Positions 3,477 through 15,425 are shown, counted from the first letter of the stretch. The stretch: DNA of 15,425 nucleotides from a candidate division WOR-3 bacterium (GCA_965649115.1 CBFGJN010000046.1:1-15425), one strand, 5' to 3'. The notes: a model not told the origin generated them from the sequence alone. Program-made: numbers and translations.

Positions 3477-4306
3477 TATTTTATAAATAACATCCTTATT
3501 CTTCTTACAAAGCTTAAATTTGCATCAGCATTTGTGTGATGTTGAATGTAGGCAAAAGCAGTATCAAATGTTGATTGATAAATAATTCCTTTATAACTTA
3601 TAAGTTTTATGCTATCAATCATAAACTTATAAGCATAGTTCTGCTTTGTTGTTGTATCACTTTCATTACAACTCAAATTTTGATTATTTGAAATTTTATT
3701 AAATTTGTATCTGTATTTTACTTTTGAGAAAATCAAATTTACAATTGAATAGGTTGTATCATTGATTTGAGAAATTTTTGAAATTGAACTATCTATGTAA
3801 ATTGTATCAATATAAACCTTTAATGAACAATCAAACATAAAATTCCCAATAAATAAAGAATCGTAAATTGCTTTATATGTGCTTTCCATAGGCTTTAAAT
3901 TCTGATTTAAAGGATAAGGATACTTATATGGTAAGTTAATGCTTATTTCTTTAAAGAAATCAAAAATTTTAACATTTCTTTGAAGATAATTATCAAAAAC
4001 TTTAAGAGTATCGTAAATTATCTTTATTGGATTTACAATAGACCAAATGGAGTCATAATAGGGAAGTGTTAAATTAGAAGTATCTCCAAAAATTCTAACA
4101 AGTGTGTCATAATTTGGAATTATCCAATTAGAAGAATAAAAGCTATACTTATAATAGGCACTATCTAAATAAAGATAAGTTTTTTTGGTTTTTGGTAAGA
4201 AATTCCAAAATTCAAGAGAAGAATAAGGATTTTTGGGTTTGGAAGGCTCAGTGGTTTTTTTAGAGCAAGCGAATAATAAAATTAAAAGTGAAATAACAAA
4301 CCTCAT
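3476..4306 (-). CDS. Uncharacterised lipoprotein rich in D-S/T motifs
   Basis: Signal peptide MRFVISLLILLFA-C with a lipobox-like LFAC. Its stop overlaps the purM start (TAATG). Confidence 0.8.
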   Translation of the reverse strand: MRFVISLLILLFACSKKTTEPSKPKNPYSSLEFWNFLPKTKKTYLYLDSAYYKYSFYSSNWIIPNYDTLVRIFGDTSNLTLPYYDSIWSIVNPIKIIYDTLKVFDNYLQRNVKIFDFFKEISINLPYKYPYPLNQNLKPMESTYKAIYDSLFIGNFMFDCSLKVYIDTIYIDSSISKISQINDTTYSIVNLIFSKVKYRYKFNKISNNQNLSCNESDTTTKQNYAYKFMIDSIKLISYKGIIYQSTFDTAFAYIQHHTNADANLSFVRRIRMLFIK

Positions 4307-4313
4307 AATGATA

Positions 4314-4323
4314 ATTTTAAAGT
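4314..4323 (-). promoter_or_regulatory. Putative extended -10 element (ACTTTAAAAT) 7 nt before the lipoprotein ATG
   Basis: The same motif at the same spacing recurs before hisS, the PCD gene and the FG-GAP gene; no SD is present. Confidence 0.6.
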
Positions 4324-4335
4324 TTGGTTTATAAA

Positions 4336-4487
4336 TGCCTTGTCCAATAATTCTAAAAATATAATTTCTATATTTTGCCCACCATCCACCCTGAATTCAA
4401 GTGGACGGCTTTAAAACTTTGCCCCCTAAAATCCCCCATTAAATCAATTGACAATCAAGGACTTAACGCTATTTGCTGGACAAGGCA
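4336..4487 (+). mobile_element. MITE-like element copy A (152 bp, internally deleted)
   Basis: Perfect terminal inverted repeat TGCCTTGTCCA / TGGACAAGGCA. The body is homologous to copies at 9894, 10108, 15034 and 15247 but lacks the left arms of both internal hairpins. Confidence 0.8.
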
Positions 4488-8565: not shown

Positions 8566-9650
8566 AGAATTTTATTCAAGAGTTTTTGAGAATATTTCAA
8601 TTTTCGGGTTATGTTTTAATTATTGTTTTTTTTATAGCAATTATTTGGGCAAATTCAAGTGATAGTTATTTCTCTATATTTCACAATAAAATAATTCACT
8701 TTTTTATAAATGAAATTTTAATGACACTATTTTTTTTACTTGTAGGACTTGAAATTAAAAGGGAAATTTTAATTGGACATTTGAGTAGTTTCAGAAAAGC
8801 TTTACTTCCTGTAATTCTTGCTTTTTTTGGTGCTATTACACCTGCTATTATTTTTATTGGAATTAATTATAATAATTTTGAAACATTAAGAGGCTGGGGT
8901 ATTCCTATGGCTACTGATATTGCTTTTGCATTCTTAATAATTAGTCTTTCAAATGTTCCATATAGTTTAAAAATAACATTGCTTTCCATTGCTGTTATTG
9001 ATGATATCATAGCAGTTATTGTAATTGGGATTTTTTATTCAAGTGGATTTAATGGTTTTTATTTATTTTTAATTCTTTTATTTGGTTTGATTTTGTTTTT
9101 TGTAAATAAGTTCTTTTATAGGGATTTAATTTTTTTAATTGCTTTAATCCCTGCTTGGTTCTTATTTTATAAAGCAGGCATTCATCCTTCTATAAGTGGT
9201 ATTTTCATAAGTTTATTTGTAAGGATTGAAAATTTAGAAAATTGGGAAGATAAACTTGATAATTTTGTAAATTTTTTTGTTTTACCAATGTTCATATTGG
9301 GAAATAGTGGTATAAAACTTTCCGATTTTGAATTTTCAAATATCTTAAATAGTTTAAGTTTAGGAATTATCTTAGGTTTATTTTTTGGAAAGCAATTAGG
9401 AATAACACTTTCAGCATTTATATTTAAAAAATTAAAAATTGTTGATTTTCCAACAGATATTAAATTATATGACATTTGGGCTATGTCTGTTGTTTGTGCT
9501 ATTGGATTTACAATGTCAATTTTCATATCCGAATTGGCTTTTTATAATGATAAAAAATTACTAGAAATTTCAAAGTTGAGTGTATTTATTGTTTCGTTTT
9601 TAAGTGCTATTTTTGGTTTAATTGTTCTAAAACTTCGTCAATTTTTTTAG
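8562..9650 (+). CDS. nhaA: Na+/H+ antiporter NhaA
   Basis: LMTLFFLLVGLEIKRE, GWGIPMATDIAFA, AVIDD, GLFFGKQLGI and IGFTMSIFI motifs. ATGA overlap with the upstream regulator. Confidence 0.95.
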   Translation: MKNFIQEFLRIFQFSGYVLIIVFFIAIIWANSSDSYFSIFHNKIIHFFINEILMTLFFLLVGLEIKREILIGHLSSFRKALLPVILAFFGAITPAIIFIGINYNNFETLRGWGIPMATDIAFAFLIISLSNVPYSLKITLLSIAVIDDIIAVIVIGIFYSSGFNGFYLFLILLFGLILFFVNKFFYRDLIFLIALIPAWFLFYKAGIHPSISGIFISLFVRIENLENWEDKLDNFVNFFVLPMFILGNSGIKLSDFEFSNILNSLSLGIILGLFFGKQLGITLSAFIFKKLKIVDFPTDIKLYDIWAMSVVCAIGFTMSIFISELAFYNDKKLLEISKLSVFIVSFLSAIFGLIVLKLRQFF

Positions 9651-9858
9651 CGAGTTCATAATCCTTTTGTGTTATGTTGTTTTCTGAATGTGTCCAAGTT
9701 TCAATAACTACCACATTATAATAAATATAAATGTTTGGATGATGATTTAACTGTTCGGAAATTTTAGCAACTTCATTTACAAAGTTTATAGCAGAAAGAA
9801 AATTTTTAAATTTATATTCTTTTTTTAGTTTTGGCGGTTCTAATTTCCAGTTATTCAT
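9607..9858 (-). CDS. phhB: Pterin-4-alpha-carbinolamine dehydratase (PhhB/PCD family)
   Basis: FKNFLSAINFVNEVA, HHP, TH and ITQKDYELAKKID motifs. 44-bp convergent overlap with nhaA. Confidence 0.9.
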   Translation of the reverse strand: MNNWKLEPPKLKKEYKFKNFLSAINFVNEVAKISEQLNHHPNIYIYYNVVVIETWTHSENNITQKDYELAKKIDEVLEQLNQK

Positions 9859-9865
9859 AATTAAA

Positions 9866-9876
9866 ATTTTAAAGTA
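9866..9876 (-). promoter_or_regulatory. Putative extended -10 element (TACTTTAAAAT) 7 nt before the PCD ATG
   Basis: Identical 11-mer and spacing to the motif before hisS. Confidence 0.6.
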
Positions 9877-9893
9877 TTTATTTTGATTATTTT

Positions 9894-10098
9894 TGCTGTG
9901 TCTAGTAATTCCAAAACTATTTATTTTACTATATTTTCCCCACCCACCCTATGAATAAGGCTTCGCCTTATAAATACCCATTTTTCGGCTATGGGGGGCT
10001 TTGCCCCCCATTAGATCCCCCATAAAATCAATAATTTCTTTAAAAATTTTATAAGTTATTGACTATCAATCACTCAACACCATTTACTAGACAAAGCA
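9894..10098 (+). mobile_element. MITE-like element copy B1 (205 bp)
   Basis: TIRs TGCTGTGTCTAGTAA / TTACTAGACAAAGCA (14/15 match). Flanked by the 9-bp direct repeat GATTATTTT (9885-9893 and 10099-10107). Confidence 0.85.
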
Positions 10099-10107
10099 GA
10101 TTATTTT

Positions 10108-10289
10108 TGCTGTGTCCAAAAATTTTGGAATTATTTATTTTTCAAAAGCCTTCGGCTTTAAAATACCCATTTTTTGCTTTGGGGGGGCAGAGCCCCCCTA
10201 ATAATCCCCCCCAATAAATCAATAATTTCCTTAAAAATTTTATAAATTATTGATTATCAATTGCTTAACAATAATTATTGGACAAAGCG
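10108..10289 (+). mobile_element. MITE-like element copy B2 (182 bp)
   Basis: TIRs TGCTGTGTCCAA / TTGGACAAAGCG. Flanked by GATTATTTT (10099-10107 and 10290-10298). Lacks the CCCACCCACCC block. Confidence 0.85.
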
Positions 10290-10298
10290 GATTATTTT

Positions 10299-10357
10299 TG
10301 CTTAGGGGGGACTTTAAATCAATAATTTCCTTAAAACTTCAATAAGTCCCATCAGCA
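10299..10357 (+). repeat. 59-bp remnant or related mini-element, third unit of the array
   Basis: Starts TGC and ends GCA; imperfect inverted ends (GGGACTT / AAGTCCC). Shares TAAATCAATAATTTCCTTAAAA with B2. Followed by GAGTATTAA (6/9 match to the 9-bp repeat). Confidence 0.5.
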
Positions 10358-10366
10358 GAGTATTAA

Positions 10367-11059
10367 TTATATCTTTCTAAATAAACCAATCAAGTATAGA
10401 CCATTTTTATAACCAAATTTAAACATTTGATAATCAATAAATTGATAGATATTTTTTAAAAATGGAAATTTGCCAATGCCTTTTGGTTTTAAATTTAAAA
10501 TTGTTCCAATTTTTATAATTTCAAATTGATTTTGTTTTGCTAATTTTTCATAATCATTAAAATCAAATGCCCATCTGTGTAATGTATAATTATTTTCTTT
10601 AATAGGCATATACCTTTCTTTTAATCTCCCACCAAGCCTATAATTAATAGTTAAAAAATGTCCATTTTTCTTCAAAATTCTTGAAATTTCTTTAAAGGAT
10701 AAACTTATATAATCCCAATTTGGAAGATGTTGGATAACTTGAAAAGAAAATACAAAATCAAATGTTTCATTTTTGAAGGGAATTTAGTGAATACTTGCTT
10801 GAACAACTTTGAATTTATCATTCTTACAAATTTTTACAGCTTCAAATGAATAATCAAATCCAAGGACATTATATTTTTTTAGATTTTCAAGTTTTAAACC
10901 TACACCACATCCAGCATCAAGTATTAGTTTTGGTTTTATAGAGTTAATTATATTTATTAAATAAAAGTTTTCAATATAATTTTCATAAAGCCAAGTTTTA
11001 GGTAGATTTTTACCATTAAGCTTATATTGATCATCAAATAGAATTTGTACTTCTTTCAT
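10367..11059 (-). pseudogene. Class I SAM-dependent methyltransferase with a single in-frame TAA
   Basis: ILDAGCGVG motif. The two listed ORFs are in the same frame and read ...QASIH*IPFKNETFDFVFSFQVIQHLPNW...EISRILKKNG. The only interruption is TAA at 10784-10786. Confidence 0.8.
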
Positions 11060-13238: not shown

Positions 13239-14999
13239 TTATAAATTTCCATTTATTAATACTTTGAAGCTCCTATTATTAACTTTTATAATATAAATAC
13301 CATTCCTTAAAATCAAATTTATTTCTTTTGATTGGTAAAAAGTTTTTACATTTTTTCCATCTATCGTAAATATTTCCCAATTTGAAGGTTTTTCTGAAAT
13401 TCCATAAAGTCTGTTTTTTTCAACTAAAATTTTTATATTTATATCCTTTTCTTCATTATAACCCAATGGTGTTATTGAACAGCTTGGCTTAACATAATTA
13501 ATTGTTCCACAATTTGAGCTATTAGAAGGATCGTCAAGTACAACAACCCTTGCATTGTTATTAAAAGATGGTAAGTTTATAATTTCAGAGCATCCATCAT
13601 TATCAATATCTGCAATAGCTCCTCCTTCAAATGTTGCTCCATTAGGTATATAATTTATTGCTCTAAATCTCCATATTATACTTCCATTATCTAAATCTAG
13701 AAGGTAAATTGAATTTTCAGAAGGTGTATAACCAGTTGATATAACCGCTTCCATACCAGGATTTGTAGGAACTAAATCCGCTATTCTAGGAGCACCACTG
13801 TGATAAGAAGGTATGGCGCCAGGAGCATCAGGAAGTTGAATATCCCAAATTACTTGTTTGTTATTTCCTTTCCTTGCTGTCGCTCTTGGTAATAAAGAAA
13901 ACTGAGAATATCCGAATACATAATCATCACATCCATCGCCATCAATATCCCATACACCAACTGATGTATTTACATTATAAGGTGGTGAGCCCCCAAGTGT
14001 ATCAGTCCAAACAATACTAGCAGAACTTCCATTATCTCTTATTAAGTGAATATAACCTTCGTATTGTGTAACCATCATTTCATCACCATTTCCTGCTGGA
14101 CCTATAAAATCAGCAATAGCTGGAGTGCTCCAATATCCTCCACCTGTTGGAGGTAAATTAAACTGCCAAATAACATTCCCATTTATTGGATTAATAGCAA
14201 CAAGAAGTCCTGTATTAGCAAGAACATATAATCTATTTCCATTATTTCCAACATTTCCATAAGCTATTGTACCCAGAGGTGGCATAAAAGCATGCGGAGG
14301 TGATAATGTTATTCTTCTAATCCAAATTTGAGAACAATTTCCATCAAATGCTCTAACAACTAAACATCCTGTAAAGGAAAGACAATTTATATTAGGTGCT
14401 TCAGCATAAGTAAAAACAATATCGGGAATCCCATTTCCATTTATATCGGGTACAATAATAGGAGATGAATAAAGAGCGGCATTAGATAGAGAAACATTAC
14501 ATATTTCAGTACCATTCAACCTTAAAATATGTAATTTGTTTTGTTTATGCTGTAAAACAACTATTTCTGGACCCGAATTTGAGGTGTTTACATCCCCAAT
14601 AGCAGGCGATTGATGAGAACCAAAACCGGTTGGTGCAAAATCCCAAAGTACATTCCCATTTGAACCATTTAAAGCCTTAACTGATGCAGTGTGACTGGAT
14701 AAAGAGTCAGACCAACCAAATATAATATCATTTATCCCATCGCCATTTACATCAAAAATAGCAGGTTATCCTTCGCATCCACATTCAAGGGTATCGCCCT
14801 GTAAGCTTGAACATTTATAGGTATCAGGTGAGTTATTAAGAAAGTTATGATACCATTTAAGAGTAAAACCATTAGCATTATTAGCGAAGTTACCTTTTAA
14901 GAATTGAACGCCAGTGTTTCTTTGTGAGCCTCTTATTTTAAGCCAATTTCCACTGGCTCCATCATTCGGTGCTTGAGATATAAGAATTATTAAAATCAT
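13239..14999 (-). pseudogene. FG-GAP/PQQ-like beta-propeller secreted protein with T9SS-like CTD, interrupted by one in-frame TAA
   Basis: ORFs 14766..14999 and 13239..14519 are in the same frame, and the region between reads GCEG*PAIFDVNGDGINDIIFG...SPAIGDV...HILRLNGTEIC without another stop. Repeated PAIxDxxxDG blades. CTD IFTIDGKNV...LRNGIYIIKVN...KVLI. Confidence 0.8.
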
Positions 15000-15005
15000 A
15001 AGTAA

Positions 15006-15016
15006 ATTTTAAAGCA
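15006..15016 (-). promoter_or_regulatory. Putative extended -10 element (TGCTTTAAAAT) 6 nt before the FG-GAP gene ATG
   Basis: Same recurring motif; no SD. Confidence 0.6.
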
Positions 15017-15033
15017 TAAATTTCTTTCCTTTT

Positions 15034-15237
15034 TGCTGTGTCCAATAATTCTAAAATATAGATTATTTCTTATTTTTCCCACCCACCCTAAATTTAAGCC
15101 TTCGGCTTATAAATGCCCATTTTTATGCCTCGGGGGGCTACGCCCCCCCCATCAAACCCCCCTAAAATAAAGATTTTTAATGAATTTTCACAAGTCATTG
15201 ATAATCAAGGACTTAACATGATTTACTGGACAAAGCA
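15034..15237 (+). mobile_element. MITE-like element copy C1 (204 bp)
   Basis: TIRs TGCTGTGTCCAATAA / TTACTGGACAAAGCA. Flanked by the 9-bp direct repeat TTTCCTTTT (15025-15033 and 15238-15246). Confidence 0.85.
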
Positions 15238-15246
15238 TTTCCTTTT

Positions 15247-15365
15247 TGCTTTGTCTAGTAATTCTAAAAATATGATTATTTCTATATTTTTCCCGCCCAC
15301 CCTATATCCAAGGCTCCGCCTTTAAAATTCCCATTTTTCGGCAGTGGGGGGGGTTTCCCCCCCCC
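15247..15365 (+). mobile_element. MITE-like element copy C2 (partial; sequence degrades into poly-C)
   Basis: Left TIR TGCTTTGTCTAGTAA and a homologous body up to the G/C hairpin. Confidence 0.75.
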
Positions 15366-15425
15366 CACCCCCCCCCCCCCAACCCCCCACCCCCCAAAAG
15401 TTTTTTTTCACTCTTTGTTAACTCC

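Follow-up and report, generated by a model that had tools for sequence, protein, structure and literature searches.

Two places in the genome of a hot-spring bacterium of candidate division WOR-3 carry short elements of one family in head-to-tail order, with the same nine bases standing between one element and the next. What brings separate elements back to a single 9-bp site? The window, by which we mean the whole 15,425-nt stretch analyzed here, is one complete contig (C46) of a 1.85-Mb assembly that comprises 99 contigs and has 27.6% G+C. We describe the two arrays that it holds, follow their units through the genome, and ask what the stacks have in common and which enzyme could have built them.

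Two arrays built around a repeated 9-mer

The first array (array B, 9885-10366) lies at the promoter of a pterin dehydratase gene and reads directly off the sequence as GATTATTTT-205-GATTATTTT-182-GATTATTTT-59-GAGTATTAA, where the numbers are unit lengths in nucleotides (Table 1). This is exactly the grammar, and these are exactly the coordinates, of the original prediction, which had also pointed to a second locus with a different 9-mer. At that locus (array C), TTTCCTTTT indeed occurs twice around unit C1 and is followed by unit C2, the sequence of which is reliable over its first ~117 nt only, as it runs into the poly-C end of the contig. On its distal side, array B sits directly past the stop codon of a methyltransferase-like pseudogene whose translation has H*I where two intact paralogues have HQI. 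An ORF listing returned no open frame of at least 60 aa inside array B, and terminator-like hairpins were absent from the array in a simple scan. With the same length threshold, a 70-aa open frame runs across C1 and C2 (15113-15325).

Table 1. Features of the window, in order of position.
Feature	Position	Strand	Details
Copy A, solitary older MITE with internal deletions	4336..4487	+	nhmmer 85.9 bits
Pterin-4a-carbinolamine dehydratase gene, the promoter of which anchors array B	9607..9858	-	Pfam PF01329, E 5.9e-26; start codon (CAT on the + strand) 9856-9858
Putative host promoter motif, AAATTTTAAAG on + and CTTTAAAATTT on the gene strand	9864..9874	-	likely -10 region; start codon 5 nt away
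Spacer of 10 nt between motif and target 9-mer	9875..9884		L end 19 nt from motif end
Target 9-mer GATTATTTT, copy 1, promoter side	9885..9893		proposed to remain the target
B1, full-length MITE, 205 nt, promoter-proximal	9894..10098	+	model positions 1-205; nhmmer 195.9 bits
Target 9-mer GATTATTTT, copy 2	10099..10107
B2, MITE of 182 nt	10108..10289	+	~180-nt subfamily without model positions 37-61; last base G, not A
Target 9-mer GATTATTTT, copy 3	10290..10298
B3, MITE remnant of 59 nt	10299..10357	+	both termini and model positions ~129-165; two internal deletions; hmmalign
Decayed fourth 9-mer copy GAGTATTAA	10358..10366		6/9 match to GATTATTTT; abuts the stop codon of the next gene
Methyltransferase-like pseudogene with in-frame TAA	10367..11059	-	Pfam Methyltransf_11, E 2.7e-4
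77-aa ORF, the promoter of which anchors array C	14766..14999	-	start codon 14997-14999
Putative promoter motif AAATTTTAAAG for array C	15004..15014	-	followed by a 10-nt spacer, 15015-15024; L end 19 nt from motif
Target 9-mer TTTCCTTTT, copy 1	15025..15033
C1, full-length MITE, 204 nt	15034..15237	+	model positions 1-205; nhmmer 178.4 bits
Target 9-mer TTTCCTTTT, copy 2	15238..15246
C2, 5' part of a MITE	15247..15363	+	model positions 1-117; remainder lost in the poly-C contig end

Repeats of this kind can be collapsed or joined wrongly in a metagenome-assembled genome, and this one breaks at young repeat copies throughout its 99 contigs, with C2 itself finishing in a poly-C contig end. Nevertheless, B1, B2 and B3 differ from each other by more than 20%, so unique words span their junctions. 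A contig from an independent sequencing run spans the gene-to-B1 boundary (273 nt, 0 differences) and another spans B2, B3 and the flank (262 nt, 8 differences). Over 9300-10900, the contigs of four public runs yielded nothing longer than short pieces amid many matches from other copies; two of these pieces cross the outer junctions. Dozens of loci, moreover, repeat the same grammar, and it is found again in a second genome. An assembly artefact is hence the least credible of the explanations that we considered, with next to no weight left to it.

The unit is a MITE with 9-bp target duplications

The original prediction had proposed a nhmmer survey of the genome. Our iterated profile returned 747 matches that together cover 100,777 nt, or 5.5% of the genome, and from these the stack sizes and junction 9-mers were tabulated. 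The family has a 205-nt consensus. Inverted repeats form its termini (TGCYKTGTCYA... and ...TRGACAAAGCA) in the 185 copies that reach both ends of the model, and the two ends pair in a DNA fold. Among the 175 full-ended copies with both flanks available, the 9-mers immediately adjoining the element (offset 0) match at 9/9 positions in 76 and at 8/9 in another 9. Shifting the comparison to offsets +/-2, +/-3 or +1 gave none at 9/9 or 8/9, and offset -1 gave 7 and 3, respectively. No Rfam family matches the MITE or the array. We identify the unit as a MITE: it has inverted terminal repeats and a target duplication of fixed length (9 bp), it is small, non-coding and present in high copy number, and it has an autonomous partner, described below.

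Stacked neighbors are independent insertions

Genome-wide, 96 of 654 neighboring match pairs are spaced by exactly 9 bp, spacings of 8 bp and 10 bp accounting for 16 and 11 pairs, and pairs less than 60 bp apart lie in the same orientation in 243 cases versus 44 in opposite orientation. When the copies are chained, 337 stand alone, 112 chains hold two units, 46 hold three and 10 are longer. Sixty-six junctions combine a complete proximal unit with a 9-bp spacer and are testable for re-use of the target. Their 9-mer equals the one upstream of the proximal unit at 9/9 positions in 31/66 and at 8/9 in 2/66, where shuffling predicts 0.73 and 0.28. In the remaining 33/66, the junction 9-mer is unrelated to the upstream one and random-looking.

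Local tandem duplication, by slippage or by unequal exchange between two 9-mers with the copies then diverging in place, would give the same X-E-X-E-X grammar and the same head-to-tail order, and unequal exchange is easy once a dimer is present. Neighbors in a stack should then be close kin, and they are not. The neighbor is the closest relative of either unit in 0/32 junctions with the same 9-mer and in 0/45 other 9-bp junctions; its median rank is 259 and 184, respectively, among ~746 copies. Neighbors are 0.77 identical, little above the 0.73 background, and the best relatives, at 0.97 for proximal and 0.91 for distal units, are found elsewhere.

The two arrays in the window follow this pattern. 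Aligned over 179 columns, B1 and B2 have an identity of 0.777, and C1 and C2 reach 0.73 over 115 columns, so that neighbors are clearly diverged, as the original prediction had noted in arguing against recent tandem duplication. The nearest relative of B1 lies on another contig (0.923), B2 being only rank 348 for B1, and the nearest relative of B2 is on contig C11 (0.966). B2 belongs to a deletion subfamily that is spread over other contigs, its 25-nt deletion being common to at least four copies at other loci (C11, C17, C70 and C30) with 94-97% identity. Because these dispersed copies have the same deletion, B2 inserted already deleted, and its last base (G for A) is the sole local change. 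Tandem duplication also leaves unexplained the fixed distance to a motif that we report below, and we consider it close to refuted. Stack units are independent insertions. With 0/77 kin neighbors and the upstream 9-mer shared at 33/66 junctions, the predicted re-duplication of the same 9 bp by independent copies is supported.

Ready-made dimers or trimers might instead have arrived through joint use of their outer ends. Such composites do exist: in four stacks (contig coordinates C1:59266, C3:37424, C4:18773 and C27:20296), the outer 9-mers match and the inner 9-mer is different, showing that dimers and a trimer move as composites. Few of the junctions with an unrelated 9-mer are accounted for in this way. 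A composite retains the 9-mer of its donor inside, however, and in arrays B and C, as in 33/66 junctions, the inner 9-mer equals the local outer one, so insertion into the local site is required. That arrays B and C came solely as composites is therefore very unlikely. We also considered recurring junction 9-mers as proof of moving dimers and rejected them, since they are mostly AT-rich coincidences between unrelated units. One junction, AGAGTTAG(T), is found at two loci, which is improbable by chance, yet its units are unrelated. A ~155-aa ORF is repeated near some arrays and, by eye, is not a transposase.

Stacks stand at a fixed distance from a promoter-like motif

The left flanks of the stacks have the motif AAATTTTAAAG in common, and in the flank logo the positions of the 9-mer are uninformative. 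The motif has 573 exact occurrences in the genome, against ~20 expected from base composition, and 330 of these 573 are 4-9 nt from a CAT, the start codon of a gene on the opposite strand. From this position and abundance, we infer that the motif is probably the -10 region of leaderless or short-leader transcripts.

Measured from the L end of a stack to the end of the motif, distances are sharply distributed. Among 296 stacks with an intact L end, 127 stand at 19 nt and 41 at 18 nt (168/296 together), and 54 occupy a minor register at 10-13 nt. The major register is exact to the base, the count falling from 127 stacks at 19 nt to 4 at 20 nt, while 2 stand at 17 nt. The motif is absent within 60 nt of the L end in 60/296 stacks. 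In a mirror test at the R end, 105/126 had no motif and the others were scattered. The position of the target 9-mer is fixed accordingly, 11-19 nt from the motif. Arrays B and C are both in the 19-nt register. Copy A stands 13 nt from a motif at 4312-4322 (1 mismatch), in the minor register; its flanks, GTTTATAAA and TAAAATAAC, show no match between the two sides.

Of the 573 exact occurrences of the motif, 351 are empty and 222 (~39%) occupied: single units account for 142 of these, two-unit stacks for 56, three-unit stacks for 21 and stacks of at least four units for 3. Simple arithmetic on these numbers gives ratios of 0.40, 0.39 and 0.375 for 1-, 2- and 3-unit stacks, above a uniform Poisson expectation. 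The excess of 2- and 3-unit stacks possibly reflects hot promoters or attraction by resident copies.

The same registers appear in 394 kb of a second species of the genus (G002). Of 24 stacks there with an intact L end, 19 follow the rule, 10 of them in the 19-nt register, 2 standing at 18 nt and 7 in the 11-nt register; 1 of the 24 lacks the motif, and both testable 9-bp junctions keep a shared 9-mer. Flanks in G002 are ~90% identical, and the MITEs at matched promoters have different 9-mers and a unit identity of 0.7-0.9, which equals background. The pterin dehydratase promoter is unoccupied in genomes G002 and G001. Where the most closely related genome has an empty site, the 19 nt adjoining its motif have diverged too far for a single copy of GATTATTTT to be recognized.

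An IS5-family insertion sequence mobilizes the MITE

The original prediction had ascribed the arrays to an unnamed transposase encoded elsewhere. Instead, the genome itself holds at least 16 copies of an IS5-family IS, which the assembly has collapsed at contig ends and the interior of which is unassembled here. The final sequence is identical at sixteen contig termini and opens with a terminus resembling that of the MITE (end A), and a second such sequence (end B) is present at 8 contig termini and 2 internal sites. Pairing the ends by their flanking 9-mers rebuilt six IS copies with perfect 9-bp duplications; arithmetic from base composition gives ~0.003 chance matches among the 160 end pairs. 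MITE and IS have 15-24 nt of each terminus in common, and end A is 18-19 nt from the motif in 11/16.

End B opens a reading frame, and a 59-aa stretch of it matches NCBIfam NF033579 (IS5) with E 3.6e-5, a score below the whole-protein cut-off because the stretch is only a fragment. With 92% identity, this stretch corresponds to the first part of a 300-aa protein found in public metagenomes that reaches 245.5 bits against NF033579 (cut-off 140) and carries PF01609 and PF13737. A metagenome contig contains a complete 922-bp relative whose end A stands 19 nt away from the motif; three further contigs place end A 18, 18 and 11 nt away. Among plasmids, the nearest named elements are ISVa1, ISAba10 and ISAcma6 at ~30% identity. 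IS903 makes 9-bp duplications; we take its ends to resemble those found here, and ISVa1 and ISAba10 presumably belong to the IS903 group.

Other searches for the enzyme returned less. The PF01609 model had no match here or in the 4 other genomes of the genus. Where two ends face each other at a distance of 0.3-4 kb, the genes between them are ordinary ones, and the transposase loci of related genera are without these ends. An exact 62-nt pattern had no match in metagenome contigs, and a 37-aa ORF fragment was too short or without match, where the 59-aa reading succeeded. The mobilizer is an IS5-family IS of this genome, with the same ends, the same positional rule and the same duplications as the MITE. 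Two of its copies are exceptions to the rule. Copy C16/C38 has a perfect duplication directly at the R end of a MITE with no motif nearby, and copy C42 sits at an anchored 9-mer in inverted orientation.

Positions just upstream of promoters could in principle be all that survives of random insertion, with selection removing the rest, and in a gene-dense genome intergenic insertions would be those tolerated. Yet selection cannot yield a register of one base (127 stacks at 19 nt versus 4 at 20 and 2 at 17) together with one orientation, and very recent, 100%-identical IS copies already obey the rule in 11/16. We give this explanation as little credence as tandem duplication.

Age order within stacks

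The original prediction read array B as decaying from left to right, from a full copy to a stub. Its last step is sound. The two deletion junctions of B3 are each unique in the genome, from which it follows that B3 decayed in place, and B3 is the oldest unit of the array. The step before it does not stand, as the deletion in B2 is a subfamily trait. In a tree of copies, moreover, the terminal branch of B2 (0.020) is shorter than that of B1 (0.068), the reverse of the genome-wide trend, although a terminal branch is an upper bound only on insertion age. That B1 arrived after B2 is what the promoter-anchored model would predict for this array.

To place array B in context, we collected 111 stacks of at least two units with a motif within 90 nt upstream, irrespective of completeness. 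Units with both ends intact make up 75/111 at position 1, 27/111 at position 2 and 5/35 at position 3, all of these counts being lowered where nhmmer may miss a 3' end beyond an internal deletion. Unit 1 is longer than unit 2 in 88/111 stacks and shorter in 22, and it is nearer the consensus in 75 stacks versus 36. In a 429-copy tree, the median terminal branch rises from 0.046 at position 1 (n=102) to 0.112 at position 2 (n=59) and 0.148 at position 3 and beyond (n=17; Mann-Whitney 2e-6). Paired within stacks, the proximal unit has the shorter branch in 38/61 and the longer in 23/61 (Wilcoxon 6e-5, sign test p 0.07), and 10/59 second-position units look young. These data support a gradient of intactness and terminal-branch age with distance from the promoter that is real but noisy, a tendency and no rule. 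The claim that units are added at one end is thus supported across the genome; at array B it extends to B3 as the oldest unit.

Two stacks rebuilt across contig ends demonstrably have their newest elements on the promoter side. The first reads promoter, 10 nt, AAAAAGAGA, a MITE identical to another copy (branch 0.0), AAAAAGAGA, IS, AAAAAGAGA and a degraded MITE. The second reads promoter, TCGCTTTTT, IS, TCGCTTTTT and a degraded chain of seven units.

This gradient also bears on whether a resident copy, once in place, guides the next. A transposase bound at a resident end could direct insertion into the adjoining 9 bp, leaving the promoter to explain the first insertion only. The IS copy C16/C38, with its duplication beside a MITE R end and no motif in reach, would fit such guidance, as would the surplus of 2- and 3-unit stacks over uniform Poisson. 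Differences between promoters can account for that surplus, however, and solitary MITEs and IS copies follow the same 18-19 nt rule as stacked ones. The youngest units are proximal, as promoter anchoring predicts, and guidance from the R end would add units distally, opposite to the gradient. We judge guidance by resident copies unlikely as the source of the stacks.

Proposed mechanism

We put at roughly 80% the probability that the arrays are independently transposed copies of a ~205-bp MITE, stacked by a promoter-anchored IS5-family transposase, and that this anchoring is why the same 9 bp are re-used. In outline, the IS5-family transposase would move MITE copies and produce 9-bp target duplications, with the 9-mer not chosen by its sequence and the insertion placed at a fixed distance from the motif CTTTAAAATTT. 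Most duplications would lie 11-19 nt from the motif and a minority 8 nt nearer to it, and orientation would be fixed, the L end (or end A of the IS) facing the promoter. After each insertion, one 9-mer copy would still stand where it was, next to the promoter, and because it is left there, this promoter-side copy would stay the preferred target. The next insertion would then re-duplicate the same 9 bp and displace older copies away from the gene, and the older, distal copies would decay. Joint use of the outer ends of a stack would give dimer or trimer composites with a foreign 9-mer at the inner junction.

The distance is presumably measured either by reading the motif directly or by way of promoter-bound RNA polymerase. 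A bolder version of this proposal is that the promoter itself positions the transposase, through direct reading of the -10-like motif or through docking on promoter-bound RNA polymerase or sigma factor, with a 19-bp ruler and a fixed polarity. Stacks would then be a dated, ordered record of bursts, and the enzyme would be a DDE integrase of natural origin that needs no RNA, is specific for site and orientation, and leaves genes intact, possibly with a second, weaker mode beside a resident end in the absence of a promoter. We offer this version tentatively, at somewhat less than even odds.

Relation to known systems

As a family, an IS5-family IS with its MITE is ordinary. Like the IS903-type members of the IS5 family and the MITEs derived from them, the elements described here combine a DDE transposase of the same family (NF033579, PF01609, PF13737), short terminal inverted repeats, 9-bp duplications and an IS of ~0.9 kb. 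IS5-family elements are usually regarded as loose in target preference. Here, by contrast, insertion is tied to a motif at fixed distance and orientation, with stacks as the result, and such a base-exact landing rule is unusual for the family. Our search of the open-access literature found no base-exact, oriented promoter rule for an IS5-family element and no ordered MITE stacks at prokaryotic promoters.

Insertion relative to promoters has a precedent in another transposase family. For TnGBS, PMC3942029 describes elements that "transpose specifically 15-17 bp upstream" of sigma-A promoters, and the same is described for Mutator-like relatives. TnGBS/ISLre2-type elements (Mutator-like DDE) thus resemble ours in inserting at a set distance upstream of promoters, here 18-19 nt in 168/296 stacks from a putative promoter. 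They differ in that their transposase family is unrelated to IS5, and the passages on TnGBS mention neither a MITE derivative nor head-to-tail stacks with shared duplications.

Stacking through a surviving target has a parallel in flies. In PMC5932611, double insertion of the Drosophila P element and of R1 gives tandem dimers with the duplication in the junction, P dimers are placed at promoter-near hot spots, and bacterial IS dimers with the duplication in the junction are cited. Both systems have a preferred site that survives by way of the target duplication, so that a second insertion gives a tandem. The present case differs in its prokaryotic host, base-exact ruler, fixed orientation, stacks of at least three units, ~39% motif occupancy and readable age order, and would be a bacterial counterpart to the double-insertion route of flies toward tandem repeats.

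A likeness to CRISPR spacer acquisition had been suggested for the polarized arrays, and it holds for the logic: new units enter at an anchored end, staggered integration re-duplicates a short sequence, and older units move off. It does not extend to membership. The 9-bp target is not a functional repeat, the inserted DNA is a transposon, the enzyme is an IS5-family DDE transposase and not Cas1-Cas2, and no role in RNA or immunity is implied.

The element inserts base-exactly and in one orientation, with ~39% of the best motifs occupied and genes left unbroken, and anchoring of this kind would explain how ~750 copies are tolerated in a 1.85-Mb genome. How a simple DDE transposase measures distance and direction from a promoter is testable now, as is the use of stacks as ordered records of transposon bursts. 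For annotation, most upstream regions in this lineage are to be read as layered transposon remains.

Twenty-five contig termini of the source assembly (G000) end in one young subfamily of the MITE, the ~180-nt type that includes B2, the 182-nt unit of array B. The contigs end there because copies of this subfamily are near enough identical, so that counts of the youngest elements come out too low. The window's own contig closes on long C runs inside C2, the MITE cut by the window's end (15364-15425), which are probably an assembly artefact at a G/C hairpin of the element. At five G000 contig ends, a repeated unit of ~29 nt, GTTTAAATTCCACTAYGTTCAGATGAAAC, is followed by a common sequence; these resemble CRISPR arrays that have one leader in common and at which the assembly breaks off.

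The junction word AGAGTTAG(T), which is not AT-rich, lies between two MITE units at both C1:59471 and C3:37628 (contigs of G000). The outer duplications differ between these loci, and the MITE units there share an identity of only 0.75-0.81.

Genome-wide, the host motif CTTTAAAATTT, a likely -10 region, stands 4-9 nt ahead of a start codon at 330 of 573 exact sites, suggesting that the majority of genes have a very short leader or none at all.

Beside array B, the methyltransferase-like gene is probably a pseudogene, since its in-frame TAA replaces a Gln found in two intact paralogues (contigs C21 and C23). The C23 paralogue (C23:600-1337) is flanked by two facing MITE ends. Five ~155-aa ORFs in G000 share the conserved motif LHLGGYYRELQ, and MITE stacks directly adjoin two of them.

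Locations of features in the window and on G000 contigs
Feature	Location	Strand	Remark
Host motif with start codon	window 9856-9874, 14997-15014, 4304-4322		
Methyltransferase-like gene	window 10367-11059	-	adjoins array B; in-frame TAA
~155-aa ORF family	C22:10890-11360, C13:7271-7753, C50:3247-3726, C61:5316-5786, C71:3393-3821		
GTTTAAATTCCACTAYGTTCAGATGAAAC repeats	C1 (3'), C32 (5'), C35 (5'), C66 (3'), C74 (3')		contig ends
~180-nt MITE subfamily	C11 3', C61 both ends, C70 both ends		contig termini, examples
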